The position numbers and the translations under genes were made by a program. From Salaquimonas sp. (GTDB taxonomy: Bacteria; Pseudomonadota; Alphaproteobacteria; Rhizobiales; Rhizobiaceae), in assembly GCA_041742235.1 (NCBI GenBank), contig JBGSJA010000019.1:902-64901 (forward strand): a stretch of DNA of 64,000 nt. Direction: 5' to 3'. Under the pieces are notes generated by a model, which was not told where the DNA came from, did no database searches, and saw only the letters and a program-made list of their open reading frames with translations. Below, piece by piece: positions 24,866 to 44,301 of the stretch; positions within the stretch are counted from its first letter, which is position 1; the number at the start of each line of letters is the position of its first letter.

Positions 24866-24908
24866 CATGCGGTCAACGCAATTGGCATTGCCGAACGCAT
24901 TCCTGGAC

Positions 24909-24931
24909 AAAAAAGCGGTAGCCGCCGCCGC
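24909..24931 (-). terminator. possible Rho-independent terminator of the hdeA-like gene
   Basis: On the minus strand, a short GC hairpin (GCGG-cta-CCGC inside GCGGCGGCGGCTACCGC) is followed by TTTTTT (complement of A run 24909-24914). It lies about 30 nt after the stop. The stem is short. Confidence 0.3.
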
Positions 24932-24957
24932 ATGCAGGCTCCCGTCCTGATGGCCTG

Positions 24958-25266
24958 CTATCGCTTTTCGTTGAAAGCCTTCATCAAGGTTTCAGCGGGA
25001 TTATCAATGCAGTAGTCCATGATCGCATTGGTCGCGGCGAGGAATTCGGGGCCATTGAAGATGGCGTTGCCTTCCTGGCCACTTTTGTAGCCATGGAAAA
25101 AAATCATTGTGAATTCCTGTTCTTCATCATCCATCTTCAGCATGGTGCGGCAGTCGATCGTCTGAATGTCAAGCACGGCGCTTTCCTGATCCTGCGCGGC
25201 GGCTTCCAATCCGGGCAACAAGAGAACCAGTGACGCGGCAAAGACGGTTTGATTCAATTTCCTCAT
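24958..25266 (-). CDS. HdeA/HdeB-family periplasmic acid-stress chaperone-like protein
   Basis: Signal peptide MRKLNQTVFAASLVLLLPGLEAAAQ. The mature part is about 80 residues and acidic, with two Cys (IDCRTMLKMDDEE ... MDYCIDNP), as in HdeA. Confidence 0.55.
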   Translation of the reverse strand: MRKLNQTVFAASLVLLLPGLEAAAQDQESAVLDIQTIDCRTMLKMDDEEQEFTMIFFHGYKSGQEGNAIFNGPEFLAATNAIMDYCIDNPAETLMKAFNEKR

Positions 25267-25293
25267 GGCTTTTCCCCGTGTTTTCCCGATTGA

Positions 25294-25644
25294 TCAAAAG
25301 CGGATTATCCCGCGCATGCATTCATTGTAGAGCACGTCGAAGCTTACGCCCCGCTGCACGCCCCGGGTGACCGCTCCGGTGGTCGCACCGATCCGGGCGC
25401 CCCTGCGCGCACCCCGGCCGCCATTGACTATTCCTCCCACCACTGCTCCGCCGGCGCCTCCGCGAACCGCCCCTCCGATGGCGCCGCCCCGGGAATTTCG
25501 AAGGGAGACTTCGCGGGCATAGGCGCGGCAATAGGCATCCCGGCTTTGGGCGTGGGTTTCGGTCGGGAGCATGACCGTGGCAGCAAACCCCCACACCATG
25601 GATATGCCCAAAATGGGCAAGGTAATCGTTTTGAAGCCTCTCAT
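25294..25644 (-). CDS. glycine-zipper family small membrane/periplasmic protein
   Basis: Start at MRGFKTITLPILGISMVWGFAATVM (ATG is the complement of 25642-25644). Core: GGAIGGAVRGGAGGAVVGGIVNGGRGARRGARIGATTGA. Confidence 0.5.
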   Translation of the reverse strand: MRGFKTITLPILGISMVWGFAATVMLPTETHAQSRDAYCRAYAREVSLRNSRGGAIGGAVRGGAGGAVVGGIVNGGRGARRGARIGATTGAVTRGVQRGVSFDVLYNECMRGIIRF

Positions 25645-25921
25645 GTTCACCACCCGGGGTTTTTTCGGCCGCGTTCGGTATTTCAGATTAAGTTGACAGA
25701 ATTCAGACAAGACAACTGCTGCGAATGTAACGGCCTGGAAGATGGGAAAAATCGTTGAGTTGCAATAGCGCGATATTGCGACACGCAAGGTGGATGGAGG
25801 CAGGAGATCGCCTCACCCAGTTGACAGCCGGCCGCTTGGCATTGCCGTGACCATCAGCCGTACCAAGGATCTGTCTGGCAATTGCACTGACCCATCATGC
25901 CGCTGCGCTTTACTTTCAGCT

Positions 25922-27448
25922 CTATGGAACCATGATCAGTGCGCCGGTCGTGCGGCCGGATTCAAGCTCATGTTGCGCATCGGCGGCCTGCGCAAGCTTG
26001 AACACCGTCGGCGCTTCGATCCGGAGGCGCCCCTCCGCGATTGCCGCGAACAAGCGGCCGGATTGAAGCTCGATCAACGCGCGGGTTCCGGTATAGTGGC
26101 CGTAGTTGGGACGCGACAGCGTCACCGAACGCGAAGCAAGTGCGCCAATGTCCCTGGCTCCGATTGGCCCGGAGGCTTGCCCGTAACTTGCGAGATGGCC
26201 CCGCAACGCCAACGCCGCGATCGAATGGTCGAAACTGTCGGCCCCGATGGCATCGTAGATCACCTCCGCTCCGCGGCTGCCCGTCAGATCCATCACCGCG
26301 TCCACGAATTCCGGTCCGCGGCCGATGATGACCTCGTGTGCGCCCAATTCACGCGCGCGAGACGCCTTTTCGTGGTTGGAGACGGTCGCAATGACATTGG
26401 CCCCCAACGAGGCTGCCCATTGTGTCAGAAGTGATCCCACGCCGCCGGCCGCGGCATGGATGACCGCCGTGTCTCCCGGCTTGACAGGGTAGACGTCGTG
26501 CAAGAGAAACGCTGCCGTGACTCCCTTGAGCAGGCCTGCCGCAGCCAGTTGGTCCGGCATGCCGGCGGGCAAGCCGATCACCAATTCGGCGGACATGGTT
26601 CGCAGGCCGGCATAGGCGCCGGGCGGCGCACATGCATAGGCAACGGCCTGCCCGACCCGCAGATGGGTCACGCCCGGACCAATATCCGTGACAACGCCGG
26701 CGGCTTCCATGCCAGGCACACCGGGCGGGCGCACGAGATCGAAATAGCCGGTGCGGCAATAGATATCGATGAAATTTACGCCGATCGCGGTCTGGCGGAT
26801 CTGAACCTCGCCGTCACGGGGCCGCGGCACTTCGATCTCGACCGGCTTCAGCACCTCTGGTCCGCCATGCCTTTCCATGACGATTGCCATGGTTCGCCCT
26901 TCCGCGAGCGACGTGGAGACAGCAGGTGCAGCGACCGGTGCCGGTTGCCAGGGAAGCGTTTTCCTTGCGTCCCGGTCCGCTTGATGGACTTCTCCCCGTG
27001 GCGCGGCGCCTCGATTGACCAGCCTGGCTTCAAGGGCGCGCATGCCGGCACGGTAGATCCCTTGGGCGACGAGGCGCGCCAGTTCGTCCTGCCGTTCGGG
27101 TGGCGTGTCAAAGCGCGATTCCCAGATCCAGAAGGTCTGGCCGCCATCGGTAACGGGTTTCAGCTGGATTTTCGCCACATATCCGAACAGCGGCATGGGC
27201 GCCTCAAGCAGGCAATAGGAAAGCACATGCTTGCGATCGTCGAGGACCAGCAATTGTTCGCGCAGGAAACCGCCTTCCTTCAATGAAAAGGCGCGTACCG
27301 CTCCGACTTCGTCGCCGGAAAGTCCTCCCTCGATCCGGCTGTGTGCGATTGCCGGATGCCATTCATGGTGGCTGTTGAACTCACGCAGGATGCGCCAAAC
27401 TACATCTAGTGGCGCGTCGATGACGGCGGTTTCGCGAATGCGCACCAT
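25922..27448 (-). CDS. fusion of an SRPBCC (START/polyketide-cyclase-like) domain and a quinone oxidoreductase (MDR/Qor)
   Basis: N-terminus: MVRIRETAVIDAPLDVVWRILREFNSHHEWHPAI ... FWIWESRFD. After a linker of about 40 residues comes MAIVMERHGGPEVLKPVEIEVPRPRDGEVQIRQTAIGVNFIDIY ... AAAGGVGSLLTQWA (NAD(P)-binding motif). It is one uninterrupted 508-aa ORF. Confidence 0.8.
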   Translation of the reverse strand: MVRIRETAVIDAPLDVVWRILREFNSHHEWHPAIAHSRIEGGLSGDEVGAVRAFSLKEGGFLREQLLVLDDRKHVLSYCLLEAPMPLFGYVAKIQLKPVTDGGQTFWIWESRFDTPPERQDELARLVAQGIYRAGMRALEARLVNRGAAPRGEVHQADRDARKTLPWQPAPVAAPAVSTSLAEGRTMAIVMERHGGPEVLKPVEIEVPRPRDGEVQIRQTAIGVNFIDIYCRTGYFDLVRPPGVPGMEAAGVVTDIGPGVTHLRVGQAVAYACAPPGAYAGLRTMSAELVIGLPAGMPDQLAAAGLLKGVTAAFLLHDVYPVKPGDTAVIHAAAGGVGSLLTQWAASLGANVIATVSNHEKASRARELGAHEVIIGRGPEFVDAVMDLTGSRGAEVIYDAIGADSFDHSIAALALRGHLASYGQASGPIGARDIGALASRSVTLSRPNYGHYTGTRALIELQSGRLFAAIAEGRLRIEAPTVFKLAQAADAQHELESGRTTGALIMVP

Positions 27449-27894
27449 CAGGCCGCGCGGCCTGCCATTTGCTGCTTCAGCATGGAAAATGCCGCCTGGA
27501 AAACGCCGGCCCCGATGTTTCGTACAAGTTCAGCCTCGCGTTCCGCCGCACAATCGAAATCGGCGGTCCACTCGGCAAACGTCTGGTTGCCGTCTGTGAT
27601 GGGTGTCAGCGCCAATGTCGCAACATAGTTCTCTACACCCATCGGACTTTCGAGAATGGCGTAGGTGCAACTCATCTCGTAGTCCGAAAGCGCCAGCAAT
27701 TGCTCGCGAATGCGTCCTCCGTCGCGCAAAGTGAAATTTCGGATGCAGCCGACCTTGTCGGCAGGCTGCATCTGTTCGATACGGCTGTCGGCCACGAACG
27801 GCGTCCAGCGCGGCAGGCCGTTGAAGTCGCGGACCAGGTCCCAAACCGCCGAGGCAGGAGCCGCAATGACCGCTGATACATAGACATGCGCCAT
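27448..27894 (-). CDS. SRPBCC family protein
   Basis: MAHVYVSAVIAAPASAVWDLVRDFNGLPRWTPFVADS ... FAEWTADFD. It is a paralogue of the N-terminal domain of the next gene. Its stop overlaps that gene's ATG (ATGA). Confidence 0.75.
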   Translation of the reverse strand: MAHVYVSAVIAAPASAVWDLVRDFNGLPRWTPFVADSRIEQMQPADKVGCIRNFTLRDGGRIREQLLALSDYEMSCTYAILESPMGVENYVATLALTPITDGNQTFAEWTADFDCAAEREAELVRNIGAGVFQAAFSMLKQQMAGRAA

Positions 27895-27904
27895 CCGCTT
27901 GCCC

Positions 27905-30097
27905 TCACCGGTCGCGATCATCGTCGATGTCGCCGGCCTTTCCGTTTTTCTTGCCTTCGCTGCGCTGGACGAGCGACGCCATGTCCTTGGCGTCCCGCAG
28001 CACGTCGGTCATGCGTCCGATAGAGCCGCCCTCTATGCCGATCTCTTTCATGAGGCTGTCGATCATCGGCGCCTGGACGCGGTAGCGCAGTGCCGAGTCA
28101 ATTACCTCGTCGGTGACGTTCTTGCGCTGGCCGTCTCCTCCCCCGTTCATGCCATCCACATGAAGGATCTTGATGCCCTCGATCTTCTCCATCGGCCGAA
28201 CGCTTTCACGCACGATGCCTTCAAGGCGTTCAAGCAGCTTGTCGCGAGTGCGCGCCACACGCGCGTCCTGCGACAGCGCATTCTCAGATTCGTTGAGCGC
28301 GCGCTGGCCCTCGGCATCGACCCTGTAGCGTTCGCTGGCGGCAAATGCGGCGACCTTTTCCGCCTCCGCTTGCGCCAGCGCTGCGATCTTCTTCGCCTCC
28401 GCCAGGCTCTTTGCCGCCTTCATTTCAGCGTCGGCCTTGGCAGTCAGGCGAAGGCCCGCCGTCTCCGCTTCGCGTTGCGCCGATATGATCTCCGTGAGCT
28501 TGCGCCGCTCCGCGATTTCCCGCTCCCGTGTGGTAAGGGCTTGCTCTTCCGCTTCGATCGCCTTGGCGCGAACCGCGGCTGCCGCCGACATTGCCGCCGA
28601 GCGCTCCTGTGACTTCTTGGCAAGCTCGATCGCCTTGTCCATCTCGGCGATCTCGAGTTGACGGTCGCGGTTGATTCCCGCCGCCCGGATTTCGCGCTCG
28701 TTCACGATGCGCGCCTCGGCAACCGCACGCTCGGTGGTAATGCGCGCCCGCTCCACTTCCTCCTGCATGGCCAGTTCGGCCTCCTCGAAGGCCTGCCTCT
28801 TGGCGATCTGCAATGCATCAAGCGTCTTTTCGCGTTCCAGCCGAACGGCGTCGAGCGCCCTTTCCTGGGCTATCCGCTCCGCCTCCGTCAGCTGTGCTTG
28901 TACGATGTCGTTGCGCTGCTTTTCGGCTTCCGCCCTTGCCAGTTCGGCAGTCTTCTCGGCGACTGCTATCTGATGCTCGAGCATATGTATCTCGATGGCC
29001 TTCTCGCGCCCGATCTCCAGCCGGCGGGCTTCGACCTCGCGCTGTATCCGCGCCTTCTCCAGTTCCAATTCGAGGGCAATCACCTCGCGCTCCGTCTTCT
29101 CGCGGGCCTTCAGTTCGACCTCGTCGATCGACCGGCGGCGCGCAACCTCGCGGCGCTGCGCATCTTCCTCGGTCTTGATCCGTTCCTCGGTAATGGCGCG
29201 CTGCTGGGCAAGGCGTGATTTCTCCACCGCCTCTTGCGCTGCAAGTTGCGCCTGCTCGGATTCCTGCTCGCGCTGGGCCCTCTCCGAAGCCAATTCCATG
29301 CGTTGCTCAGCACGGCGGATTTCCAGTTCACGCTCCTGCTGAAGCCTTGCATATTCCTGGTCGCGGTCGATCTGGTAGACCTGCTTCTGGGCGGCAAGGT
29401 TCTGGTTCCGGATCTCGACCAGGGTACGCTGCTCGATCTCGTTTCGCATCTTCCGGCGCGATTCGATCGACTCGGTGATCTGCGTCAGGCCTTCAGCGTC
29501 AAAGGCATTGGAGGGATCGAAATATTCAAGCCCGGTCTGGTCGAGATCGACGACCGCGACGGACTCCAGTTCCAGGCCGTTCTTCGCCAGCGATTCAGCC
29601 GCGAGCGAGCGAACTGCTTCGGCAAACTCTCCGCGTTGTTCATGCATCTCCTCGAGCGCCATGCGCGCTGCAATGGTGCGCATGGCAGCGGCGAACTTGC
29701 CCTCCAGCAGTTCACGCAGGCCATCTTGCTGCAAGGTGCGCCGGCCAAGCGTTTGTGCCGCAGAGGCCACCGCATCGCGCCCGGCGCCGACGCGAACGAA
29801 AAACTCGGCCTCGATGTCGACGCGCATGCGATTGCGCGTGATCAGCGCCTGTTCGTTCATGCGCTTCACGTCGATGCGGATGACATTCATGTTTACGGGC
29901 GTGATCTCGTGCAGGACGGGGATGACGAAGGCACCGCCATTCACCACGACCTTCTCTCCAAGGAACCCGGTACGAACGAACGCGATATCCTTGGTTGATC
30001 GCCGGTAGAGCCATCGCAGGATGTAGACCGCGGCGACGATCGCGATCACCAGCAATATCAGCCAGAGCAATGCTGCTCCCAGTAATTCGCCCGACAT
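27905..30097 (-). CDS. flotillin / SPFH (band 7) family protein with very long coiled coil (730 aa)
   Basis: Start MSGELLGAALLWLILLVIAIVAAVYIL (TM helix; GGGAGGAAGAT precedes the ATG, complement of 30095-30097). The SPFH core is AFVRTGFLGEKVVVNGGAFVIPVLHEI ... RMRVDIEAEFFVRV. It is followed by about 400 residues of E/A/R/Q-rich heptad-like sequence. Confidence 0.85.
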   Translation of the reverse strand: MSGELLGAALLWLILLVIAIVAAVYILRWLYRRSTKDIAFVRTGFLGEKVVVNGGAFVIPVLHEITPVNMNVIRIDVKRMNEQALITRNRMRVDIEAEFFVRVGAGRDAVASAAQTLGRRTLQQDGLRELLEGKFAAAMRTIAARMALEEMHEQRGEFAEAVRSLAAESLAKNGLELESVAVVDLDQTGLEYFDPSNAFDAEGLTQITESIESRRKMRNEIEQRTLVEIRNQNLAAQKQVYQIDRDQEYARLQQERELEIRRAEQRMELASERAQREQESEQAQLAAQEAVEKSRLAQQRAITEERIKTEEDAQRREVARRRSIDEVELKAREKTEREVIALELELEKARIQREVEARRLEIGREKAIEIHMLEHQIAVAEKTAELARAEAEKQRNDIVQAQLTEAERIAQERALDAVRLEREKTLDALQIAKRQAFEEAELAMQEEVERARITTERAVAEARIVNEREIRAAGINRDRQLEIAEMDKAIELAKKSQERSAAMSAAAAVRAKAIEAEEQALTTREREIAERRKLTEIISAQREAETAGLRLTAKADAEMKAAKSLAEAKKIAALAQAEAEKVAAFAASERYRVDAEGQRALNESENALSQDARVARTRDKLLERLEGIVRESVRPMEKIEGIKILHVDGMNGGGDGQRKNVTDEVIDSALRYRVQAPMIDSLMKEIGIEGGSIGRMTDVLRDAKDMASLVQRSEGKKNGKAGDIDDDRDR

Positions 30098-30138
30098 ATC
30101 TTCCTCCCTGTATTCCCTCGGCGACGGGGTGCGAGCCC

Positions 30139-30969
30139 CTAGAACGTCACCTGCTTGAATTTCCGCGTCTGTTCGACCAACGCCACTTCCGTTGGCAGCC
30201 TTTCCATCGAGGAAGCGCCATAGAAGCCGTGGCAATTGCTCGTCCGGTTGAGCACGTAGCTTGCATCCTCCGGCGACGAGACCGGGCCGCCATGCACCAG
30301 TACGAGCACATCCTTGTTGACCTTGAGCGCCGCTTCCGCCCAGCGATCGACCAGTGCGGGACAGTCTTCAAGCTTCAGCGCCGTTTCCGCGCCGATGGAG
30401 CCACCGGTCGTCAGGCCGAGATGACAAACGACGATATCGGCGCCGGCTTTCGTCATCGCCGCGCTTTCGTCCTCGTTGAAGACATAAGGGGTGGTCAGCA
30501 TGTCCATTGAATGGGCAAGCGCGATCAGGTCGATCTCCAGCCCGTAGGACATCCCCGTCTCCTCCAGATTTGTCCGGAAGGTGCCATCGATCAGGCCCAC
30601 CGTGGGGAAATTCTGGATACCGGAAAAACCGATCTCCTTCACCTGGCGCAAGAATGGTTCGAACATGCAGAACGGATCGGTTCCGTTCACCCCGGCAAGC
30701 ACCGGTGTCTTGCGAACGACAGGCAATATCTCGCGCGCCATTTCCATGACGATGTCGTTGGCATTGCCATAGGCGAGAAGGCCCGAGAGCGACCCGCGGC
30801 CCGCCATGCGGTACCGGCCGGAATTGTAGATGACGATCAGGTCTATGCCGCCTTGCTCTTCGCACTTGGCGGACAGGCCGGTTCCCGCTCCGCCGCCGAC
30901 GATCGGAACCCTGTCGCGCTTCATTTGCCGGAACCACTCGACGATTTGCTTGCGTTCGAACCTTGGCAT
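30139..30969 (-). CDS. phosphoenolpyruvate hydrolase-like TIM-barrel protein (partner of UPF0261; Tm-1 C-terminal domain homologue)
   Basis: [49 protein letters not shown] ... [15 protein letters not shown] ... [10 protein letters not shown] ... VLVHGGP. Its ATG shares one base with the upstream stop (TGATG). Confidence 0.7.
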
Positions 30970-33188
30970 CAGGCGCTCCTCCTTAAGGGCTTGCAGACGG
31001 AATTGAACGCGGCGACCAGTGCCGACGAGAACAGGTCGTCATTGATGTTGGCATTGATCCGAATGATGCGCCGCCGGGCGGTCTGGCGGACCGTGGCCTC
31101 AAGCGCGTCGAACAAGGCCTTGTCGGCGCCAGGATCGTGGAAAGGTCCGCCCGACCGGTCAAGAATGGATACGCCACCTTCCGGAATGAGGAAGATGGAC
31201 GGGCCATCCATGCTGTTCATTCGCCGTCCGATCCACTCGCCAAAGGCGCGGTTCTCATCAGCTGTCGTTCGCATCAGCGTGACGGACGGGTTGTGGATGA
31301 CGAATTTCCGTGAGGCGAAACGATCCGGCACGCTGTCGCGGGGGCCGAAATTGACCATGTCCAGCGCACCGGCCGAGCCGACCCACGGAATTCCGGTTTC
31401 GATTGCTGCGCCAAACCGGTTCTCGTCGGCGGGAAACACCCCCCCTACCAACATGTCGGCGATCTCTGTCGTGGTGATGTCGAGAAAGCCGGCGAGCAGT
31501 CCCGAGTGTCCAAGCGCTTCCATGGCCCTGCCGCCGGTGCCGGTCGCGTGAAACACGAGACAGTCGAAATCGCCTTCGAGTGCGCGTGAAACCGCCTGGA
31601 CGCACGGCGTGGTGACGCCGAACATCGTGAGGCCGACTGCCGGTTTCGATGCGGCGCGCCTGGACGCCATCTCGGCGCCGGTGGGAAGCTGCGCGATCAT
31701 GCCGGCGAGCGCATGCGCCGCGTTTGCCAGTACGCGCTCCGTGATCTGGTTGAGACCTTGCACGTCAGCCACCGAATGGAACATGTTGATATCGGTGGCG
31801 CCGACATAGGCGCGTGTGTCGCCCGCCGCGACCGTGGAAACCATGACCTTCGGAATTCCAACAGGCAGTTCGCGCATACCGGCGGTGGCGATGGATGTTC
31901 CGCCCGATCCACCGGCGGAGATCACGCCGCCAACATCCCGCTCTTGGGCCATGAACCTTGCGAAGGCCTGCGCCATCGCTGCAACCGCGCGACCCCTGTC
32001 ATCGCCAAACACAGCCATGGTTCCGCCCGGATGCATCGCGGCGACCTGCATCGGCGTGACGTCGCACCGCGACGGTTTGCCGGAGGTCGACAGGTCAACT
32101 GTCTTGACGCGCAAGCCGACCTTCTTCAGGCAGGCCGCGACATAGCCCAGTTCCTGACCTTTGGTGTCGAACGTGCCGGCAACGATTGCCGTGCGGCCGA
32201 TACGCTCGGCATAGGGAATTGCGAAAACCTTCGAGGAAGGCTCTTGCGGCTTTTGCGCCTCCGCCACGACATCGCGAAGGCTGCTCGCAGGCAAACCCCA
32301 CCGGTTGGGGAGTGAATTGAGCGTGCGGAAATTTTGCGTTGCGTTCCCTTCGTTCCGGTTCTCTTGCCCGCGCTCGACCCTGTACACTTGTGCAAAGAGT
32401 TCGCCGGGGCTCGTTTGCGGTCCCGGGTCGGGCGGCGCCAGGTCATCCGCGTGACGTCCGACACCCAAAAGGCGCTGCTGCAGGTCGCGATCGCCCGCCA
32501 GCACGGAAGCTTCCATGACCTGGTTGATGCGGCCATTGACCATGATCGCGACCGTGTCGGAAACCGCGGTGGCGACGCCGATGTTCTGTTCGATCACAAG
32601 GATCGCCATCTCGCCTTCCGCAGCAAGCGTCACCATCATCTTCTCGACCTGGTCCACGATCACGGGAGCAAGCCCTTCGGTCGGTTCGTCCATCACCAGC
32701 AGCCGCGGATTGGCAAGCAATGCGCGCGAAATCGACAGCATCTGCTGCTCGCCGCCGGAGAGCTGCGACCCGCCATTGTTGCGCCGGTCCGCCAGTCGCG
32801 GAAACGTTTCGTAGATGCGCTCGCGCGTCCATGACGCCTCCGCGGGGTTTGACTCGGCCAGGCGCAAGTGTTCGTCCACGGTGAGGCTCGGCCAAACGCG
32901 CCTGCCCTGCGGAACATAGGCGACGCCCGCATGATGGATGCGGTGCGGTTCCATCTTCGAGATTTCCTGGCCATGCACACGGATACTGCCGGAGCGGGCG
33001 GACTTGAGACCGGTAATCGTGTTGCACAATGTGGTCTTGCCCATGCCGTTGCGGCCCACGACGCTCATCACTCCGTGATCAAGCGTCAGCGAAACGCCCT
33101 GAACCACATGCGCCTCGCCATAGTAGACATGGAGGTTCTGGATCGCGAGGGCGGCCTTTGCAGCAGGTGCGGCGCGGATCTCAGCCAT
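30969..33188 (-). CDS. LivF-type ABC ATPase fused to a UPF0261 (Tm-1-like ATP-binding) domain (739 aa)
   Basis: Start MAEIRAAP (ATG is the complement of 33186-33188, GGAGG upstream, 8-nt overlap with the LivG-like gene). The ABC part is complete: [38 protein letters not shown] and LVIEQN. A linker of about 85 residues follows. Then comes [24 protein letters not shown] ... [33 protein letters not shown] ... [11 protein letters not shown] ... ITTTEI, the UPF0261 pattern. There is no stop or frame change between the domains. Confidence 0.8.
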
Positions 33189-33966
33189 GCCTGCCTCCAA
33201 GGTATATTTCCTGCACCTGCGGATCTCTTTCGATCTCCTCCGGCGTGCCTTCCTTGAACACCTTGCCATTGTGCATCATCGACACGAGTTCGCTGACCCG
33301 CAGGGCAACGTCGAGGTCATGCTCGATGATGATGTAGCCGATATGCGCCGGAAGCGCGTTGAGGATCGCAACAAGATCGCGGCGCTCCGTCGGGGACAGG
33401 CCCGCGGCGGGTTCATCGAACAGGATGAACCTTGGCGCCCCAGCGAGGGCCAATGCGATTTCCAGCTGGCGCTGCTGCCCGTGGGAGAGCGTCCCGACCG
33501 GCATTTCCGCCTCACGATCCAGATGCACCACATGGATGATCGACTCGGCCTGCGCCATGGCGCCATCGCCGGCGCCCGGACGCAGAAGCGAAAAGCGCCG
33601 GTTCGACACGCCCCGGCACGCCAAATAGACCGATTGCCGAATGGTCAGGCTCGTGAACAACTGCGAGATCTGATAGGTCCGTCGCAGGCCGCGGCGGATG
33701 CGCTCGTGTGGCGGCAACGACGTTATGTCCTCGCCGAAGAACCGGATCCTGCCCGAACTCGGCTGGAAGTCCCCCGTGATCGCATTGAACAGCGTCGTCT
33801 TGCCGGCTCCATTGGAGCCGAGGACGGCGCGTCTTTCGCCCGCGCCGATCCTCATGTTGATGTCGGCAAGCGCAACCAATGCCCCGAAGTTCCGGCCCAC
33901 GCCTTCAAGCTCCAGCGCGTTTGCGCCAGCTCCCCGAAGTCTTGATGCTGCAACCGATACGGACAT
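33181..33966 (-). CDS. ABC transporter ATP-binding protein (LivG-like)
   Basis: LELEGVGRNFGALVALADINM, GSNGAGKTT, LSHGQQRQLEIALAL, FILFDEPAAGLSP and EIYLGG. Confidence 0.85.
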   Translation of the reverse strand: MSVSVAASRLRGAGANALELEGVGRNFGALVALADINMRIGAGERRAVLGSNGAGKTTLFNAITGDFQPSSGRIRFFGEDITSLPPHERIRRGLRRTYQISQLFTSLTIRQSVYLACRGVSNRRFSLLRPGAGDGAMAQAESIIHVVHLDREAEMPVGTLSHGQQRQLEIALALAGAPRFILFDEPAAGLSPTERRDLVAILNALPAHIGYIIIEHDLDVALRVSELVSMMHNGKVFKEGTPEEIERDPQVQEIYLGGRHG

Positions 33967-33987
33967 TGGAAGCGCTCTCTGCCTGCC

Positions 33988-35232
33988 TTACTCGCAGCTC
34001 GGGTTTTCGCGGCTTACCGCGCCAAGTGCCCGGAACTCGGCTTCGTCGATGCCGAGCGTCTGGTTCACCTGCGGCGTTACCTTGATGAGCTTGTTCAGCA
34101 GGACGCCGCCCTCGCCTTCAGTGACTTCCGTCAGGAAGATGTCGGCGATCGCGTTGCGGTTGCTGTCGAGCGACACCTTGCCGGTCGGTGAGTCGAACGA
34201 CACCTTTGCAAGTGTCTCGCGGTATTTCGCAGGGTCGGAAAGATCGCCGCCAACGGTCTCGAGCGCCAGCAGCGCAGCCTTCATGTTGACGTAGTAGGCA
34301 TGGGCAAACAGGGAGGGCGAGGGGAAGGCGCCCTTCTGCTTGCTGTAGGCTTCCGTGAACGCCTTCCACTCGGCCGCATCGTTTGTATCGGCGGTCGGCC
34401 CGGCTGAAGGGGTTCCGATCAAGACGTCGCGGAGCTTGCCCTTCGAGGTCAGAACCGTCTGGTCAACGGTAATCGACCCGCCAACCAGCGGCGCCTGCCC
34501 GCCGGCCTGCTGATACTGCGTGAGAAAGTTGACGGCGTCGGCGCCGCCAAGCGCCACGTAGATGGCATCGACATCATCGGGTATGGCTGCGATGACCGAA
34601 GAGAAGTCCTTGTTGCCGATCGGCACCCACGATTTCGAAGGCACCTTGCCGCCGGCCTTGCAGAACTCCGCCATGAACCCGAACACTTGGGTGTAGGGAA
34701 AGGAATAGTCTTCGGCCACGACCGCAACCGTCTTGTAGCCCTTGTCGTTGAATGCGTAAGTGCCAAGGCCCGCCATCCATTGCGCGCCATCGGTGGAGAA
34801 GCGGAAGAAGTTTTCTGCCGGATCGCGGAAGGTCGTATCCTGCGCCGCGGAAGAACCGTTGACAAAGGTCACGTCCGGTTGGGTCTTTGCATATTCCTTC
34901 ACCGCGATGCCTTCATCGCCGGACAGCGGACCGACAAGAATCTTCACGCCGTCCTGCTCGACCAGCTTGCGCGCAGCGCGCACCGCGCTGTCGGGCGACG
35001 CGTCGGAAGAGCCCTTGACGATCTCGATTTTCTTGCCGCCCGCCATGGATTTGAATTCTTCCAAGGCAGTCATCGCGCCGCGTTCGGCATCCTCTCCAAG
35101 GACCGTGAAGGCGCCTTCAAACGTGGCCAGCAGGCCGACCTTGACCGTGTCTTCCTGCGCAAGGCCAAGGCCTGGCGCCGCCATGCCTGCCACGACGCCC
35201 AGCGCAATGAACGTTCTTCTGGTAATGCTCAT
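33988..35232 (-). CDS. ABC transporter substrate-binding protein (LivJ/K-like, Peripla_BP_6)
   Basis: Start MSITRRTFIALGVVAGMAAPGLGLAQ (GGGAGGATGAA precedes the ATG, complement of 35230-35232). It continues with VKVGLLATFEGAFTVLGEDAERGAMTALEE. Confidence 0.85.
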   Translation of the reverse strand: MSITRRTFIALGVVAGMAAPGLGLAQEDTVKVGLLATFEGAFTVLGEDAERGAMTALEEFKSMAGGKKIEIVKGSSDASPDSAVRAARKLVEQDGVKILVGPLSGDEGIAVKEYAKTQPDVTFVNGSSAAQDTTFRDPAENFFRFSTDGAQWMAGLGTYAFNDKGYKTVAVVAEDYSFPYTQVFGFMAEFCKAGGKVPSKSWVPIGNKDFSSVIAAIPDDVDAIYVALGGADAVNFLTQYQQAGGQAPLVGGSITVDQTVLTSKGKLRDVLIGTPSAGPTADTNDAAEWKAFTEAYSKQKGAFPSPSLFAHAYYVNMKAALLALETVGGDLSDPAKYRETLAKVSFDSPTGKVSLDSNRNAIADIFLTEVTEGEGGVLLNKLIKVTPQVNQTLGIDEAEFRALGAVSRENPSCE

Positions 35233-35257
35233 TTCATCCTCCCGTTGAACCATCACT

Positions 35258-36304
35258 TCAAAGCCCGGCGCCCTGCGACCCCGAGTTCCATCCATCCCGG
35301 GATGTTCGCGGCCTGAACCGGTCCCAAAGCCCGAGAATTCCGTCCGGCGACACAAAAACGATCACCAGGAAAAACAATCCGATCAAAGTATTGAAGCGCT
35401 GCGCGCCCACCAGATCGATTGCGAAGGTCTGGATGATCACGACAACTGCCGCGCCGATGAACGGTCCGATCGGATGGCGTTGCCCGCCGATGACCGCGAT
35501 GATGAGAATGTTGATGGCCGGCCCGACAGCAATCGTGCCCGGGGAGATGCGGCCGTTGAACCAGACCAGAAGCACGCCTGCAGCGCCCGCGATCAGTCCC
35601 GTAAGCCACCAGGCGAAGACCTTGTGGGCGGTGACATCATACCCGATCGCGCGCATGCGCCGCGGATTGTCGCGGATCGCCTGCAGCGTGAGCCCGAATG
35701 TCGACTTCCCACCATAAAGGACGGCGAAATAGGCCACGGCGGCATTCGCGAGGCAAAGATAGTAAAATGGCACCGGATCGCGCCAATAGACACCAAGGAC
35801 TTCGGGCGCGCGCAGCCCGGTGTAACCTGGAAAGCCGTTGAACAGGGCGTAGTTCTGCTGCGTGAAGTAGAAACAGGCAGTGGCGATCGCCAAGGTGATC
35901 ATGATCGTGTAGATGCCTTCGGTGCGCACGGCGATCCAGCCGAAGACAGCCGACAGCAGTGAAGCGATCAGGATCGCCAGCGGCGTCACGATCCACCAGG
36001 GCCAGTCAAAGCCGTATACGCCCGAATTGTTCTGGCCGAAGATGGCAACCACATAGCCGGCAGCCCCGGCGATCGTCACCTGGGCCAAGCTGACCATGCC
36101 GCCATATCCGGCAAGGACCATCAATGACAGGGCGATCATTCCGAGGATCAGCGAGTAGCCGCCAATCTGCGTGAGGAAGAAATCGGATGCGACCGCCGGA
36201 TAGGCCAGCAACAACAAGCCAAGGATGGCGTGCGCGGGGGTGAAAAACTCACCGGCGCGCGCCGTTGCTCCGGCAGAAACAGATTCGGCCGCACCAACGC
36301 TCAT
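35258..36304 (-). CDS. ABC permease (LivM-like)
   Basis: FFLTQIGGYSLILGMIALSLMVLAGYGGMVSLAQVTIAGAAGY; multi-pass hydrophobic profile. Confidence 0.85.
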   Translation of the reverse strand: MSVGAAESVSAGATARAGEFFTPAHAILGLLLLAYPAVASDFFLTQIGGYSLILGMIALSLMVLAGYGGMVSLAQVTIAGAAGYVVAIFGQNNSGVYGFDWPWWIVTPLAILIASLLSAVFGWIAVRTEGIYTIMITLAIATACFYFTQQNYALFNGFPGYTGLRAPEVLGVYWRDPVPFYYLCLANAAVAYFAVLYGGKSTFGLTLQAIRDNPRRMRAIGYDVTAHKVFAWWLTGLIAGAAGVLLVWFNGRISPGTIAVGPAINILIIAVIGGQRHPIGPFIGAAVVVIIQTFAIDLVGAQRFNTLIGLFFLVIVFVSPDGILGLWDRFRPRTSRDGWNSGSQGAGL

Positions 36305-37353
36305 GCCGGCCTGCCCATCAGGCCCTGCGGCCTGAGGCTGAGCGTCACGACCAGTATCACGAAGGTCAGAACCACTCCGTAGGTGGGAAAGTAAACAAGC
36401 CCGATCTGTTCGGCGAGCCCGATAATCAGCGCGCCGATGGCTGCTCCCGTCACCGATCCCATGCCGCCGACGATCACCACGACGAGGGAGGCAAGCAGGT
36501 AGCGTACGTCTTCGCCGGGCGCGACCGAAAGCGCCGAGCCGCCAACAACTCCGGCAAGGCCGGCCAGCCCCGCGCCCATGGCGAAAACCACGGCGAATAC
36601 CAGATGCACGTTCTTGCCGGTTGCGGCCAGCATGTCGCGATCATCGACGCCGGCGCGGATCATCATTCCGATGCGGGTCCGGTTCAACATCAGCCACAGG
36701 CCAATGCCTATCGCGATGGCAAGTACCAACACCATCAACCGGTAGAAGGGGTAGGTCAGGTAGACCGCCGCCCCGTTCGAGCGGAATGCGGTGATGAATG
36801 GCAGCTTGATCGAGCCGTCGAGCCAGTCGGGTAGAATGAACTGGTAGGTGGTCCCGCCCCAGGCGGCGAGCATCAGGTCCGCGCCAACGATCGAGATGCC
36901 GATGGTCACCAGCGTCTGTCGCAGGTCGTCGCCTTCCAGCCGCCGGAATACCAGGACCTGCATGATCAGTCCCACCAGCGCAAGGACTACGAATCCCGCG
37001 GCTGCGCCAAGCAGCCAGTAGCCGGTGCGCGTGCCGACTTCGTAGCCCACATAAGCCCCCAGCAGGTAAAGTGTGCCGTGGGCGAGATTGACGTTGCGCA
37101 TCAGCCCGAAGACGAGCGTGAAGCCGCTGGCGACCAGGAAATAAAGCCCGGCCAGGGTCAGGCCGTTGAGTACCGCGCTCAGAAATGCCTTTTTGGAAAT
37201 CAGGATCGCATTCAGCCAGTCCGGCCACTGGGCGAAAAACAACCAGGCCAGAACCACCACCGCGAGCAGCCACAATACCAGCCGGCCCGGCCGGGCCGGG
37301 CCGGCGCCGCCTTGTGCCAGGGGATCGTGGCCCGGGGTTGCGCTCTCGCTCAT
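36301..37353 (-). CDS. ABC permease (LivH-like) with N-terminal extension
   Basis: LNGLTLAGLYFLVASGFTLVFGLMRNVNLAHGTLYLLGAYVGY, preceded by an extra segment of about 50 residues containing one hydrophobic helix. Confidence 0.85.
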   Translation of the reverse strand: MSESATPGHDPLAQGGAGPARPGRLVLWLLAVVVLAWLFFAQWPDWLNAILISKKAFLSAVLNGLTLAGLYFLVASGFTLVFGLMRNVNLAHGTLYLLGAYVGYEVGTRTGYWLLGAAAGFVVLALVGLIMQVLVFRRLEGDDLRQTLVTIGISIVGADLMLAAWGGTTYQFILPDWLDGSIKLPFITAFRSNGAAVYLTYPFYRLMVLVLAIAIGIGLWLMLNRTRIGMMIRAGVDDRDMLAATGKNVHLVFAVVFAMGAGLAGLAGVVGGSALSVAPGEDVRYLLASLVVVIVGGMGSVTGAAIGALIIGLAEQIGLVYFPTYGVVLTFVILVVTLSLRPQGLMGRPA

Positions 37354-37357
37354 GGCT

Positions 37358-38668
37358 TCAGGCGATCAGCCGGCGGCGGGCTTCGTTCATCCGCGGCGCC
37401 TTGTGGAACTTGCCGTCCTTCATGATCGCCAGCAGCCGGTTCCTGTCCTGCAGGATTCGGACGTCCGCCAGCGGGTCGCCATCGACAAGCAGGAGGTCGG
37501 CGAAATAGCCCTCCTTCACCATGCCAAGTTCATTCTCCATGCCCATGATCTGGCCGCCATATTTCGTGGCCGCCTGGATCGCTTCCATGGGCGTGAAACC
37601 CAGCATCTCGACGAAGGTCTGGATGTCCTTCGCATTGGTTCCCTGGGGCGTCCATGCAAAGCCGTAATCGCCGCCGATGCAGATGCGGATTCCGCGCCGG
37701 TGCATCTTCTTCATGGTGTCCACGCACATTTCCAGCTCCCGTTCGTACAGAAGCGTGATCGGCGAACCGGGCTTGATTCCCCACTGCTCGGCGTGGCGCG
37801 CGGTGTTGATCAGCCAGGCGATGCCGGGCGCAACGAAATGCCGGTCCTTTGCCGCTTCAAGCATGTCGAGCGCCTCCTCGTCGCAGAAAGAGGCATGGTA
37901 GATGTTGCGGATGCCGTGGCGCACGCATTGCTTTACGGAATTGGCCGAGCGGGCATGGGCGGATACCACCTTGTTCCGGCACTTCGCCTCCTTGACGGCA
38001 ATCGCCACTTCTTCTTCCGACATGGGCGTTTCTTCCGCGCCCATGCCGGTGATTTCCTCGCCCGACAGGTTGAGCTTGATCGAATCCACGCCGTACTTGA
38101 TCAAGGTACGCACGACGCGCCGCACTTCCTCCGGTCCGGAGACGACAATGCCCAGGTTGAGGCCCTCATGCGGGATATGCGAAGGTGCGCTGTCGCCGAG
38201 GCCCCCGACAGTCGTGATCTCTGGTCCTGCCGCCAGATAACGTGGGCCGGGGAACCTGCCCTCGTTGATGAACCGCTTGGCAACGACATCAAGCCGGGCC
38301 TTCGCGGCCGCCGCGCCCCTGCCCGCGGTGAAGCCGGCATCGAGCACCAGCTTGGCCATCTCCATCGTGACCAGCATGTGCTCTTCCAGTTCCATCATCT
38401 GGATTGGCTCGATGCCGGGAGCATTGTTCCAGGAAAGATGCAGATGGGCGTCGATCATTCCGGGCATGAGCGTTGCGCCCATGCCGTCGATCACCGTCGC
38501 GCCGCCGCCATAGGAAGGTGCGGAAAAGCGGGAGGAACCGCGGGTGATCGACTTGATACGGTTGCCCTGCACCAGCACCTCGCCGCTGAAGGGCGCCTCG
38601 CCGCTCGCGTCGAGCACGCGCACATTCGTGAACAGGACCGGGCCGTTGCCGTTCATGTCGTCAGCCAT
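37358..38668 (-). CDS. amidohydrolase-superfamily metal-dependent hydrolase
   Basis: Start MADDMNGNGPVLFTNVRVLDASGE (AAGGAGG upstream; ATG is the complement of 38666-38668). Motifs: LMPGMIDAHLHL (HxH), SAHARS and the tail FADLLLVDGDPLADVRIL. Confidence 0.8.
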   Translation of the reverse strand: MADDMNGNGPVLFTNVRVLDASGEAPFSGEVLVQGNRIKSITRGSSRFSAPSYGGGATVIDGMGATLMPGMIDAHLHLSWNNAPGIEPIQMMELEEHMLVTMEMAKLVLDAGFTAGRGAAAAKARLDVVAKRFINEGRFPGPRYLAAGPEITTVGGLGDSAPSHIPHEGLNLGIVVSGPEEVRRVVRTLIKYGVDSIKLNLSGEEITGMGAEETPMSEEEVAIAVKEAKCRNKVVSAHARSANSVKQCVRHGIRNIYHASFCDEEALDMLEAAKDRHFVAPGIAWLINTARHAEQWGIKPGSPITLLYERELEMCVDTMKKMHRRGIRICIGGDYGFAWTPQGTNAKDIQTFVEMLGFTPMEAIQAATKYGGQIMGMENELGMVKEGYFADLLLVDGDPLADVRILQDRNRLLAIMKDGKFHKAPRMNEARRRLIA

Positions 38669-38721
38669 GGGAATTCCTCCTTGTTTTTTGCGCCGCCGCT
38701 GCAAGGCGCGCGGTTCAAACT

Positions 38722-39495
38722 TCAGCCTTCCCGCAGGAAGGCGCTGATCAGGCTTCTGCATTCGGCGGGCTTTTCCACGGTTGCCCAGTGCCCGCATTGC
38801 GAAAGGATCCTTGCCCGCCCCTGCGGCAGTTCATCCGCGAGGGCCGTGGCGATCGTTGGCGGCGAGATGGCATCCTCATCGCCCGTGACGACAAGCGTGC
38901 GCGCCCTGACAAGCGACGCATCCGCCCGATTTGCGCCTGCCAGGGCTTCGCACAACTTCGCGAAGCCTTCGGCATCCTGGCGCATGTGGCTTTCCCTGAC
39001 GAAGGCCAAAGCGGCAGGGGATGTTTCGACCGATCCCGCCGCGAGTCCGGCAGCCGCGACCTGGTCGGCAATGACTGCCATGCCCTCCCGCCGCGCAAGT
39101 CCCGCTCGTGCCCGCAGGCGCTCGCGGGCCGGTTCGGCAGGCTCCACGATCGGCCCGAAAAGGATGAGGCTCGAAACGAATTCCGGCTTGTGCATGGCCA
39201 GATGCTGGGCAAGCAAGGTCCCGAAGGAATGGGCAATGAGTTGAACGGATCGCACGCCGAGTTCGCTGATCAGCGCCCCGAGCGAGGCGACGATGAAGGC
39301 GATGTCGATGCTGCCCGCCGGCGTGCGCGAACGCCCCGATCCCGGCAGGTCCGGGCGAATGATGCGCATGCCGCCAAGCGAGGGGACCAATGGCTGCCAA
39401 CTGTTCGAAGTGCCGCCAAGACCGTGGAGGAGCAGGGCGCACTCGCCTTGACCCTCATCCTCCACCACCATTCCCGCGATTGTCCGGCTGGTCAC
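38722..39495 (-). CDS. alpha/beta hydrolase (enol-lactonase-like)
   Basis: LLLHGLGGTSNSWQPL, nucleophile elbow LIAHSFGT and the C-terminal CGHWATVEKP. Confidence 0.8.
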   Translation of the reverse strand: MTSRTIAGMVVEDEGQGECALLLHGLGGTSNSWQPLVPSLGGMRIIRPDLPGSGRSRTPAGSIDIAFIVASLGALISELGVRSVQLIAHSFGTLLAQHLAMHKPEFVSSLILFGPIVEPAEPARERLRARAGLARREGMAVIADQVAAAGLAAGSVETSPAALAFVRESHMRQDAEGFAKLCEALAGANRADASLVRARTLVVTGDEDAISPPTIATALADELPQGRARILSQCGHWATVEKPAECRSLISAFLREG

Positions 39496-40367
39496 GATGC
39501 GCGCTCCAGGAACCGGTTTTCCAAGGTGCCGATGCCGGCGATCTCGACGCGCACCACGTCGCCGTGACGCAGGTATTTCGGCGGCTTGAAGCCGATGCCG
39601 ACGCCGGCCGGCGTTCCCGTCGCGATGATGTCGCCTGGATGCAGCGTCACGCCCGCGGAAATCGTCTCGATGATCTTCGGGATCGTGAAGATCAGGTCGG
39701 CCGTGTTCGCCTTCTGGCGCAGTTCACCATTGACATAGCAACAGACCTCCATGTCATGAACCGACACCTCATCGGCGGTAACCGCGTATGGCCCCATGGG
39801 GCAGAATGTATCTTGCGACTTGGCGACCAGCCACTGGCTGTAGCGCCCTTGCAGGTCGCGCGCTGTAACGTCGTTTATAATAGTATATCCCCAGACGTGC
39901 TCCATCGCGTCTGCCGCACGAATTCCCCGGCCGGCCTTTCCGATGACAACCGCCAGTTCCGCTTCATAGTCCACCGCTGCCGATACGGAAGAATCCAGCA
40001 TGACCGCGCAGCCATGCGCGACGACGGATTCGGGTACCTTGGAAAAGACGATCGGTTCTTTCGGCACCTCGCCGGCCGCGGCGCTGGAGTCGAAACCGCT
40101 TTGTGAGAATTCGCGGGCGTGCTCCCGGTAATTCTTGCCAACGCAGAAGATGTTTCGGCGCGGCCTCGGAAACGGAGCCTCCAGTTGCACCTCGTCAAGC
40201 GCCACGGATGCAAGCCGATCGATTGATGCCAGGTCCTGGCCGATCAGCGCCGCCACGCCCGACTCGGCCTCTTGGCCCGAAAGCGCGAGCGGCTCAAGTC
40301 CGGTGCCGTCGGGGCGCACGATTCCCACGCGGCGTTCTCCGCCAACGCGAAATGTTGCAAACTTCAC
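39492..40367 (-). CDS. fumarylacetoacetate hydrolase (FAH) family protein
   Basis: The ORF track starts at 40382, but GGGAGGAG sits 4 nt before the GTG at 40367. That start gives the family-typical N-terminus (M)KFATFRVGGERRVGIV. Motifs: IFCVGKNYREHA, VDYEAELAVVIGK, NDVTARDLQ and HPGDIIATGTPAGVG. Confidence 0.8.
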   Translation of the reverse strand: MKFATFRVGGERRVGIVRPDGTGLEPLALSGQEAESGVAALIGQDLASIDRLASVALDEVQLEAPFPRPRRNIFCVGKNYREHAREFSQSGFDSSAAAGEVPKEPIVFSKVPESVVAHGCAVMLDSSVSAAVDYEAELAVVIGKAGRGIRAADAMEHVWGYTIINDVTARDLQGRYSQWLVAKSQDTFCPMGPYAVTADEVSVHDMEVCCYVNGELRQKANTADLIFTIPKIIETISAGVTLHPGDIIATGTPAGVGIGFKPPKYLRHGDVVRVEIAGIGTLENRFLERAS

Positions 40368-40393
40368 GGAGCTCCTCCCCATGAATTTAAATG

Positions 40394-40412: not shown

Positions 40413-40468
40413 TATGTATTAAATATGGTATTGGAAATTGGAACAGCTCGCAAGAGTCGTTTTTGAAA

Positions 40469-41230
40469 ATGGTTTCCGCAAATGATTGGCTTGAGGAAAG
40501 CGCAGTGAACTTACCGCTTGAGGGAACCAATTCAACATCGGTTCACATTCGTCAGCGAGGCGCGCCCAGCAAGGCTGCCCTTCTGGAACTGGACTTGCTC
40601 CGGCGCCTTGAAAACAAGGAATGGAGCGACGGCGAACCGCTTCCCGACGAAAGAAGCATCGCAGCCAAATACGCAGTGGCACGAAACACGGTTCGCAAGG
40701 CATTGGCGCGCCTTGAAGCAAGCGGACTGCTGAGACGGGAGGTCGGCCGCGGCACATTCGCGGTTCCGCAGCCTGAAGAGGCGGTGGCCAGGATATTGGC
40801 GCGTTTCACCAATGCAAGCCCTGCGGACATCTTGAACCTGCGCCTGTTCATCGAGCCGCACGCGGCGGCAGCCGCCGCCCGCAGTCTTTCCGAAAACGAG
40901 TACGCGGCAATTTCGGCCGCCGCCGCAAAGGCGGAACAGGCGAACGAACTGGACGAATACGAATATTGGGACAATGAATTTCACCGGCAGATCAACAACG
41001 CAGCCGGCAATCGTTTCCTCTCCGATTTCTTCGCGCTGCTGACCATCATTCGATATACGCCGACGATGATGGAAATCCGCCGCCAATGGTTCAGCGAGGC
41101 GCGCCGCAACGCCTACAACGAAGAGCATCGTGAGATTCTGGAGGCCCTGCGCAACTGGGACAGCGATCGCGCGTCCGCTGCAATGCGCCACCATCTGCTT
41201 TCGCGGCGGCGAAACTATTTCGGCCAATAG
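40469..41230 (+). CDS. GntR family transcriptional regulator, FadR subfamily (FCD domain)
   Basis: wHTH LPDERSIAAKYAVARNTVRKALARLEASGLLRREVGRGTFAV. The FCD domain is ILNLRLFIEPHAAAAAA ... EHREILEALRNWDSDRASAAMRHHL. The first ATG is at 40469; the ORF track uses the TTG at 40463. Confidence 0.8.
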   Translation: MVSANDWLEESAVNLPLEGTNSTSVHIRQRGAPSKAALLELDLLRRLENKEWSDGEPLPDERSIAAKYAVARNTVRKALARLEASGLLRREVGRGTFAVPQPEEAVARILARFTNASPADILNLRLFIEPHAAAAAARSLSENEYAAISAAAAKAEQANELDEYEYWDNEFHRQINNAAGNRFLSDFFALLTIIRYTPTMMEIRRQWFSEARRNAYNEEHREILEALRNWDSDRASAAMRHHLLSRRRNYFGQ

Positions 41231-41240
41231 GATAACCGCC

Positions 41241-44231: not shown

Positions 44232-44245
44232 AAACCGCTGCCATC

Positions 44246-44270: not shown

Positions 44271-44301
44271 ACTCTTCCAAATCCGGTTGCACTGATTGCT
44301 C

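Follow-up and report, generated by a model that had tools for sequence, protein, structure and literature searches.

Proteins of the UPF0261 family and of the triosephosphate isomerase (TIM)-barrel family PF09370 are widespread in bacteria, archaea, fungi, and plants (the Tm-1-like proteins); to our knowledge, an activity is known for a single stand-alone UPF0261 protein only and for none of the TIM-barrel partners. Tomato Tm-1 (PDB 3WRW, 3WRX, and 3WRY) combines UPF0261 and PF09370 in one polypeptide. MarK of Novosphingobium aromaticivorans (Saro_1862; PDB 9MPY), a homodimer, uses ATP to phosphorylate acetovanillone and related aromatics, with formation of ADP; according to its authors, this is the first catalytic activity of the family (PMC12624787). 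Ordinary members of the LivF/UrtE/BraG group of ATP-binding cassette (ABC) ATPases (HAAT family, TC 3.A.1.4) stop at about residue 240 and pair with a LivG/UrtD-type ATPase, two BPD_transp_2 permeases, and a Peripla_BP_6 binding protein. Here we describe a gene in which an ATPase of this group is fused to a UPF0261 domain, found in a 64,000-nucleotide (nt) stretch of DNA from Salaquimonas sp. (assembly GCA_041742235.1, contig JBGSJA010000019.1, positions 902 to 64,901; hereafter the window). The fusion is a real, conserved bacterial gene; its motifs and database matches mark the product as one of the two motor subunits of an importer, one that carries, on a long tether, a complete ATP-binding domain of the Tm-1/MarK type, probably a kinase.

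The Fusion Gene and Its Distribution

The gene runs on the reverse strand from an ATG at 33188, with GGAGG just 5′ of it, to a TGA at 30971-30969, and comprises 739 codons and the stop with no internal stop. Its start overlaps the 3′ end of the LivG-type gene by 8 nt; its stop and the start of the TIM-barrel gene form the sequence TGATG, the A at 30969 being common to both genes. A longer open reading frame (ORF) of 766 aa, from an in-frame ATG at 33269, was rejected: it starts inside the LivG-type gene, orthologues are 735-745 aa long, and independent gene calls give 739 aa. The protein has three parts, a nucleotide-binding domain (NBD; residues 1-244), a linker of about 80 residues, and a UPF0261 domain (residues 326-739). 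Pfam matches (PF00005 for ABC; PF06792 and PF23189 for UPF0261) place ABC_tran at residues 30-170 (101.8 bits, cut-off 25), the UPF0261 N-terminal family at 333-499 (190 bits), and UPF0261_C at 515-731 (285.5 bits; cut-off 27 for both). A first-pass annotation made from the letters of the window had proposed the uninterrupted 739-codon frame with its motifs, the base shared with the TIM-barrel gene, and the linker between the two domains; frame reading, motif checks, and Pfam confirm the frame and the shared base, and the linker, of about 80 residues, is predicted to be disordered by AlphaFold2.

That the fusion is an artefact of assembly or sequencing, two genes having been merged by a frameshift or by the absence of a stop in the linker, has a negligible probability. 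Two independent Logan assemblies encode exactly the same 739-aa protein, with no stop or frameshift in the linker, and a third covers the 3′ part in frame, which answers the first-pass call for a check of continuity; moreover, length and architecture are shared by hundreds of orthologues, some of them from complete genomes (Mesorhizobium, Hoeflea, and Roseibium). A search of 5.8 billion proteins listed at least 120 orthologue clusters at 67-80% identity, all with PF00005, PF06792, and PF23189, from Zhengella, Hoeflea, Roseibium, Aquicoccus, Amorphus, Pseudaminobacter, Mesorhizobium, Xanthobacteraceae, and others. The listed clusters are 733-748 aa long except for two, one of 722 aa and one of 1026 aa (P0031); the latter was considered as a triple fusion of NBD, UPF0261, and TIM barrel, and rejected, no PF09370 being present. 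A HMMER search of 1.84 billion 50%-identity representatives recovered about a dozen clusters of full-length fusions, with identities as low as about 40%, together with many junction-spanning fragments; stand-alone UPF0261 proteins of about 400 aa rank beneath them.

The combination of ABC_tran with UPF0261, for which the first-pass annotation had proposed a database search, is thus present in at least 120 clusters; it is common in Hyphomicrobiales and Rhodobacterales, and the earlier suggestion of rarity does not stand. Many orthologues carry the NCBI name 'ABC transporter permease' despite having no membrane domain, a misnomer that probably hides the architecture from keyword searches. Literature searches by fusion and by COG and Pfam identifiers returned no mention of an ABC-UPF0261 fusion, only the papers on the origin of Tm-1 and on MarK being relevant; the arrangement is visible in databases and undescribed in the literature searched.

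The UPF0261 Domain

All family motifs are intact in the appended domain, which matches NCBIfam NF002673 (the PRK02399 model) at 563.4 bits against a cut-off of 520. Its matches to Tm-1 (3WRY; E = 1.8e-93 for the full-length protein and 3.7e-94 for the domain alone) and to MarK (9MPY; E = 2.3e-50 and 7e-51, respectively) agree with Foldseek, in which Tm-1 and MarK are the best matches of the domain (MarK E 1e-33) and no PDB entry spans both halves of the fusion. The N-terminal region of Tm-1 is about 50% identical to the domain and has every pocket motif in common with it; Tm-1 joins this region to its TIM barrel, whereas here UPF0261 is joined to an ABC ATPase and the TIM barrel is encoded by a separate, coupled gene.

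MarK belongs to the same fold and family, and the ATP-contacting Lys (K16 in MarK, K20 in Tm-1) corresponds to K343 in the motif GTFDTK, invariant in 41 homologues. Among the acceptor residues of MarK, G195, H219 (H547 in the fusion), and H304 (H632) are kept; four other pocket positions have exactly the states found in Tm-1, and these are invariant in 41 fused homologues. The domain looks catalytically competent, to judge by these residues, and is not an orthologue of MarK, its pocket being of the conserved Tm-1 type. MarK also differs in context, being a stand-alone homodimer encoded in an acvCDEF carboxylase/phosphatase operon, with neither the TIM-barrel partner nor the transporter of the fusion; acvCDEF-type biotin carboxylase or phosphatase genes were found neither in the 14.5-kb gene string around the fusion nor in the related loci. 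A UPF0261 protein can be a kinase, since MarK phosphorylates aromatics with ATP (PMC12624787); the first-pass statement that the biochemical function of the family is unknown is therefore superseded, though by a stand-alone relative.

The ATPase Domain and Its Transporter

The NBD has intact Walker A, Q-loop (PQGR), signature (LSGGEQQM), and Walker B motifs, the last with its catalytic Glu, followed by VIEQN. It aligns end to end with the Thermotoga maritima protein 1JI0, which ends at query residue 243 (Foldseek template modelling [TM] score 0.91); like 1JI0, it has the full motif set of the LivF/UrtE/BraG group, VIEQN aligning with LVEQN so that Gln replaces the switch His. The LivG-type MJ1267 has IEH at this position, and the LivG/UrtD-type partner ATPase of the window likewise keeps the switch His (GSNGAGKTT, LSHGQQ, FILFDEP, and IIEHD). 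The name 'LivF type' given in the first-pass annotation holds in the generic sense of a second NBD of a HAAT-family transporter; in NCBIfam, UrtE (TIGR03410; 224.4 bits against a cut-off of 285.8) outscores LivF (NF008626; 155.3 against 441), and neither equivalog cut-off is reached. Unlike ordinary members of the group, the fusion runs 495 residues further.

In its gene partners the fusion resembles the ordinary members: Pfam and motifs bear out an operon with a LivG-type ATPase, two permeases, and a binding protein, as first annotated. There is no second LivF-type gene in this operon, so the fusion is the second ATPase of the transporter. The nearest ligand-defined PDB relatives of the binding protein are the Rhodopseudomonas palustris binders of benzoate derivatives 4EY3 and 4EVQ, a weak match (E 1e-22).

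The Linker

AlphaFold2 gives residues 243-325 a predicted local distance difference test score (pLDDT) of 23-33 between confidently modelled domains (about 85 and about 80), with a predicted TM score (pTM) of 0.44 for the whole; the model indicates a flexible tether. Among 120 close homologues the linker is gap-free and only about 55% conserved, while the NBD and UPF0261 domains are equally conserved, at a column identity of about 0.85-0.9. Two motifs stand out, VYRVER (residues 268-273, nt 32370-32387) and LPNRWG (residues 293-298, nt 32295-32312), the latter with a conserved core LPNRW (293-297). A corresponding P-x-RW recurs in most divergent fusions, whose linkers are otherwise unalignable, and persists where the UPF0261 domain has decayed; it is absent from unfused UPF0261 proteins, which begin directly at the V-x-V-x-G-T-x-D-T-K strand. 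The number of orthologue clusters (at least 120), the equal conservation of the two domains, and the invariant ATP- and acceptor-site residues argue that the fusion is under selection.

Fused, Unfused, and Decayed Forms

The proteins of the window were mapped onto related loci and ORF continuity was checked. A profile search of genome contigs matched generic ABC motifs and passed over close relatives, and most of the 80 loci listed are ordinary LivF genes; L007-L016 were used. True fusions were found in Aquicoccus (L003), Mesorhizobium (L004), a Burkholderiales metagenome-assembled genome (MAG; L007), an Arenicellales MAG (L008), Reyranella soli (L009), and metagenomic loci (L089-L091), and so span Alpha-, Beta-, and Gammaproteobacteria. 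In L007 and L009 long open frames raised the possibility of a triple fusion of LivG, LivF, and UPF0261, which was rejected as the LivG and NBD matches lie in different frames.

In Falsiroseomonas (L010) and two Actinomycetes MAGs (L012 and L013), the LivG and LivF genes are followed by a stop and then by separate UPF0261 and TIM-barrel genes; the distance from LivF to the UPF0261 gene is no more than about 30 nt in L010 and L013, and about 0.9 kb in L012. In an Acidimicrobiales MAG (L016), genes for a substrate-binding protein (SBP), UPF0261, and the TIM barrel are divergent from the permease and ATPase genes, and L011 and L014 keep the same genes nearby. In a rough neighbour-joining tree without bootstrap, the fused NBDs form one clade, sister to the LivF proteins of the unfused adjacent arrangements. 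This Rosetta-stone pattern suggests that genes already associated in one operon became fused a single time, after which the fusion spread through the proteobacterial classes; the unfused adjacency in Falsiroseomonas and Actinomycetota and the single fused clade strengthen the link between transporter and UPF0261 module drawn in the first-pass annotation.

Either half of the fusion may decay. Six fused proteins (P0125, P0131, P0136, P0137, P0147, and P0151) have perfect NBD motifs with every UPF0261 motif gone; the five loci of this kind that were read, L087, L088, L092, L093, and L094 (P0137, P0151, P0125, P0131, and P0147, respectively), have this decayed domain, no TIM-barrel gene, and a flotillin gene directly next. 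The reverse is seen in L091 (10001-12157; P0132), where the NBD lacks Walker A, Walker B, Q-loop, and signature and the locus lacks LivG and SBP genes, with the UPF0261 domain intact and the TIM barrel downstream. The transporter module and the UPF0261/TIM module can each outlive the other.

A Megablast search against plasmids gave partial matches only, which led to an unfused pair in Rhizobium johnstonii 3841: on pRL9 (L006, 214030-216061), overlapping genes encode a Tm-1-like protein and a PEP hydrolase-like protein. Oriented divergently to this pair are genes for a GntR regulator and for a CUT1 sugar-type ABC transporter, the latter accompanied by a Gfo/Idh/MocA oxidoreductase and a cupin, so the pair is tied to a different transporter class there.

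The TIM-Barrel Partner

The gene downstream of the fusion encodes a full-length PF09370 ('PEP hydrolase-like') TIM-barrel protein of 276 aa (Pfam 427.5 bits), and a relaxed Pfam scan found no second family in it. Its PDB match, Mll9387 (2P10; E = 3e-120), was deposited as a 'putative phosphonopyruvate hydrolase' without a demonstrated activity, and the match names the family, not the function. No other protein of the module is as conserved as the TIM barrel, at 84, 76, 69, 70, 70, and 61% identity across loci compared with 73, 59, 59, 53, 53, and 45% for UPF0261 across the same loci; such conservation would be expected of an enzyme.

UPF0261, fused or adjacent, is paired with PF09370 in L003, L007-L014, L016, and L089-L091. 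The TIM barrel is adjacent in eight of nine fused lineages with intact UPF0261 motifs (the exception being Mesorhizobium, L004) and in none of the five fusions with decayed motifs (Fisher p = 0.003, with loci treated as independent though phylogenetically related). It thus tracks the integrity of the UPF0261 catalytic motifs and is no obligate neighbour of UPF0261: Mesorhizobium lacks it, as do all fusions whose UPF0261 domain is degenerate.

Neighbouring Genes

The flotillin gene and the two genes for SRPBCC proteins beyond it are joined to the gene string by a 41-nt gap and by overlaps (Table 1). Wherever the flank downstream of a proteobacterial fusion was read (L003, L004, L008, L009, L087-L090, and L092-L094), it contains a flotillin gene, in Alpha- and Gammaproteobacteria alike. 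This gene comes directly after the fusion if the TIM barrel is absent or located elsewhere, and after the TIM barrel otherwise; two SRPBCC/Polyketide_cyc2 genes come after flotillin in all of these loci except L094. In the decayed clade, four of the five flotillins are much longer (900-1140 aa), and one from this clade shares 46% identity with that of the window over the SPFH part; the flotillin of L094 has 566 aa. In one of the two SRPBCC genes the domain lies N-terminal to a quinone oxidoreductase (ADH_N/ADH_zinc_N), a fusion kept in L003, L004, L008, L009, and L089. A minimal locus, L090, lies between recA and housekeeping genes and is free of catabolic genes, comprising only the permeases, the SBP, LivG, the fusion, the TIM barrel, flotillin, and the two SRPBCC genes. 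The literature searched contained no mention of flotillin together with SRPBCC.

Table 1. Features of the fusion gene and its neighbourhood in the window
Feature	Position	Strand	Basis
SRPBCC + quinone-oxidoreductase fusion gene	25922-27448	-	Pfam/NCBIfam
SRPBCC (Polyketide_cyc2) gene	27448-27921	-	Pfam/NCBIfam
Flotillin (Band_7 + Flot)	27905..30097	-	Pfam; 41 nt downstream of TIM barrel
PF09370 TIM-barrel gene	30139..30969	-	Pfam, PDB 2P10
Fusion gene (HAAT-family LivF/UrtE-type ABC ATPase + linker + UPF0261)	30969..33188	-	ORF, Pfam, independent assemblies, orthologues
UPF0261 (Tm-1/MarK-type) ATP-binding domain, residues 326-739	30972..32213	-	Pfam, NCBIfam, PDB matches
Linker, residues 245-325, predicted disordered	32214..32456	-	pLDDT 23-33; homologue alignment
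NBD, residues 1-244	32457..33188	-	Motifs; alignment and Foldseek to 1JI0
LivG/UrtD-type ABC ATPase, 261 aa	33181..33966	-	Pfam, NCBIfam, motifs
Peripla_BP_6 binding protein, RR signal peptide	33988..35232	-	Pfam
BPD_transp_2 permease	35258-36304	-	Pfam
BPD_transp_2 permease	36301-37353	-	Pfam
Amidohydrolase	37358-38797 at most	-	Pfam, NCBIfam
PcaD-like alpha/beta hydrolase	38722-39495	-	Pfam, NCBIfam
FAA-hydrolase family protein	39492-40382	-	Pfam, NCBIfam
GntR/FCD regulator, divergent	40463..41230	+	57% identical to L003 GntR; orthologue Pfam labels

Upstream of the permeases lie three catabolic genes (37358..40382), under the divergent GntR/FCD regulator; Aquicoccus and Mesorhizobium keep them, but some other fused loci do not. 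Relatives of the amidohydrolase are Cc2672 and ochratoxinase-type carboxypeptidases. The neighbours in the decayed clade include a xanthine dehydrogenase-like molybdenum hydroxylase, an iron-containing alcohol dehydrogenase, and an AraC regulator. The relatives of the SBP, the SRPBCC proteins, and the amidohydrolase give no more than a hint of the substrate, perhaps an acid or amide of aromatic or hydrophobic character. A scan of 24800-41300 for promoters and terminators gave fewer matches than shuffled sequence.

An ORF with the FCD domain only and no DNA-binding domain (41130-41741, plus strand) overlaps the GntR/FCD regulator, and the same pair occurs in Aquicoccus L003. Elsewhere on the plus strand, the window holds a hydantoinase B/A (oxoprolinase-like) pair (19068-22864), a 2-oxoglutarate-Fe(II) oxygenase (41851-42840), and a Bmp/PnrA-type ABC system (43116-48594); the longest ORF of the double-NBD ATPase of this last system has about 228 extra N-terminal residues, probably an over-extended start.

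Possible Roles of the Fused Domain

The reading we favour, tentatively and at a little under an even chance, is that the fusion ties an ATP-dependent UPF0261/TIM-barrel enzyme pair to the importer and that this pair acts on the imported substrate. The fusion occupies the LivF position of a binding-protein-dependent HAAT-family importer, and the flexible tether would keep the UPF0261 domain, together with the TIM-barrel protein, at the cytoplasmic face; the pair would phosphorylate or otherwise activate, and so trap, the imported compound or its first breakdown product, and the fusion would join covalently what other lineages associate by placing separate genes side by side. In favour of this reading are the precedent of MarK, the invariant catalytic residues, the loss of the TIM barrel together with the catalytic motifs, the survival of either module without the other, and the disordered tether. 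That UPF0261 is a kinase, that it acts on what is transported, that it touches the TIM barrel, and what the substrate might be are what we infer. Since the tether is predicted to be disordered over about 80 residues and the pTM is low, the gain would be one of local concentration rather than rigid coupling. Coupling of entry to immediate phosphorylation by a transporter-attached domain recalls group translocation by the phosphotransferase system, a comparison of how the two might work only: there is no kinship in sequence or fold, and here ABC ATPases power the transport and any phosphorylation would come after translocation.

Several observations weigh against such an enzyme pair. MarK, the relative with a known activity, is only about 30-35% identical to the UPF0261 domain and needs no TIM barrel, and four of its seven pocket residues differ in the fusion (T196V, F283M, I285N, and H348L), so a different acceptor is to be expected. 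MarK and Tm-1 are dimeric, yet a LivG/LivF transporter has a single LivF. The known role of Tm-1 is binding of viral replicase, not catalysis; we know of no enzymatic or transport role for Tm-1. Beyond 2P10, a fold search with the TIM barrel gave only generic neighbours at a TM score of about 0.55 (an archaeal TIM, Pdx1, 2-methylisocitrate lyase, and ketopantoate hydroxymethyltransferase), the UPF0261 motifs of Mesorhizobium are intact in the absence of a neighbouring TIM barrel, and the set of accessory enzymes varies from clade to clade, so that they do not fix the substrate. Finally, the degenerate fusions retain a domain of about 400 residues devoid of catalytic motifs, so that a non-catalytic role suffices for its retention.

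That last point also speaks for a regulatory appendage, in which UPF0261, with or without the TIM barrel, would sense ATP or a cytoplasmic metabolite and gate the importer in the manner of the C-terminal domains of MalK, MetN, ModC, and OpuAA. The first-pass annotation had offered channelling and gating side by side; we consider gating unlikely, and the comparative evidence leans toward the enzyme pair. The appended domain does sit where known regulatory domains sit, C-terminal to an importer NBD; five loci on at least two branches of the NBD tree keep it without any catalytic motif beside a perfect NBD; the linker motifs are conserved independently of catalysis; and Tm-1 works by ATP-bridged binding. 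However, the domains of MalK, MetN, ModC, and OpuAA are small (TOBE, NIL, and CBS folds), are packed on the NBD dimer, and occur as two per transporter, whereas the fusion bears a two-lobed, enzyme-type domain of 414 residues, one per heterodimeric NBD pair, after an 83-residue linker of low confidence, with no confident packing between domains. Further evidence against a gate comes from L091, where UPF0261 and TIM barrel persist beside a dead NBD in a locus that lacks LivG and SBP; from the catalytic residues, invariant in the clade of the window; from the TIM barrel, lost exactly where the UPF0261 motifs decay; and from the unfused UPF0261 forms, which have no docking extension. As each module survives without the other, a tethered enzyme fits better than an obligate allosteric gate.

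The constancy of flotillin, which extends to the minimal locus and to those with degenerate UPF0261, would be explained if the linker and UPF0261 anchored the transporter in a flotillin/SRPBCC membrane assembly, with catalysis secondary or absent, as would the SRPBCC genes that come with it in all but L094 and the P-x-RW motif that outlasts UPF0261 decay. Such a scaffold seems to us rather improbable: there is no sign of contact, the actinobacterial unfused loci have no detectable flotillin, and a further explanation would be needed for the clade of the window, in which the catalytic motifs are invariant and the TIM barrel is strongly conserved. It is very unlikely that the fusion is neutral, that is, that loss of a stop codon joined adjacent co-transcribed genes with equal expression as the only consequence and no mechanistic coupling. 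The unfused adjacent arrangements evidently function, and the linker is poorly conserved overall, as that account would have it; against it stand a single origin kept across three proteobacterial classes, a linker that is gap-free in the close clade and has two conserved motifs, and the fact that even decayed domains have not been removed. A bolder form of the enzyme-pair reading is import and capture, in which the tethered UPF0261 kinase and its TIM-barrel partner would phosphorylate the substrate as it emerges, making the system an ABC-based counterpart in function to the group translocation of the phosphotransferase system, flotillin and the two SRPBCC ligand carriers would organise the process, and the same chemistry would explain the cellular role of the plant Tm-1-like proteins; we regard it as quite doubtful.

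Significance

The covalent link to one specific importer makes a poorly understood enzyme pair experimentally tractable. If the appended domain gates transport, enzyme-derived regulatory domains would form a new class among ABC transporters, for which the decayed variants would provide natural controls. If catalysis takes place at the transporter, the fusion would represent a new way of coupling ABC import to metabolic trapping, and its flotillin and SRPBCC neighbours would offer a rare genetic handle on the role of bacterial flotillins.

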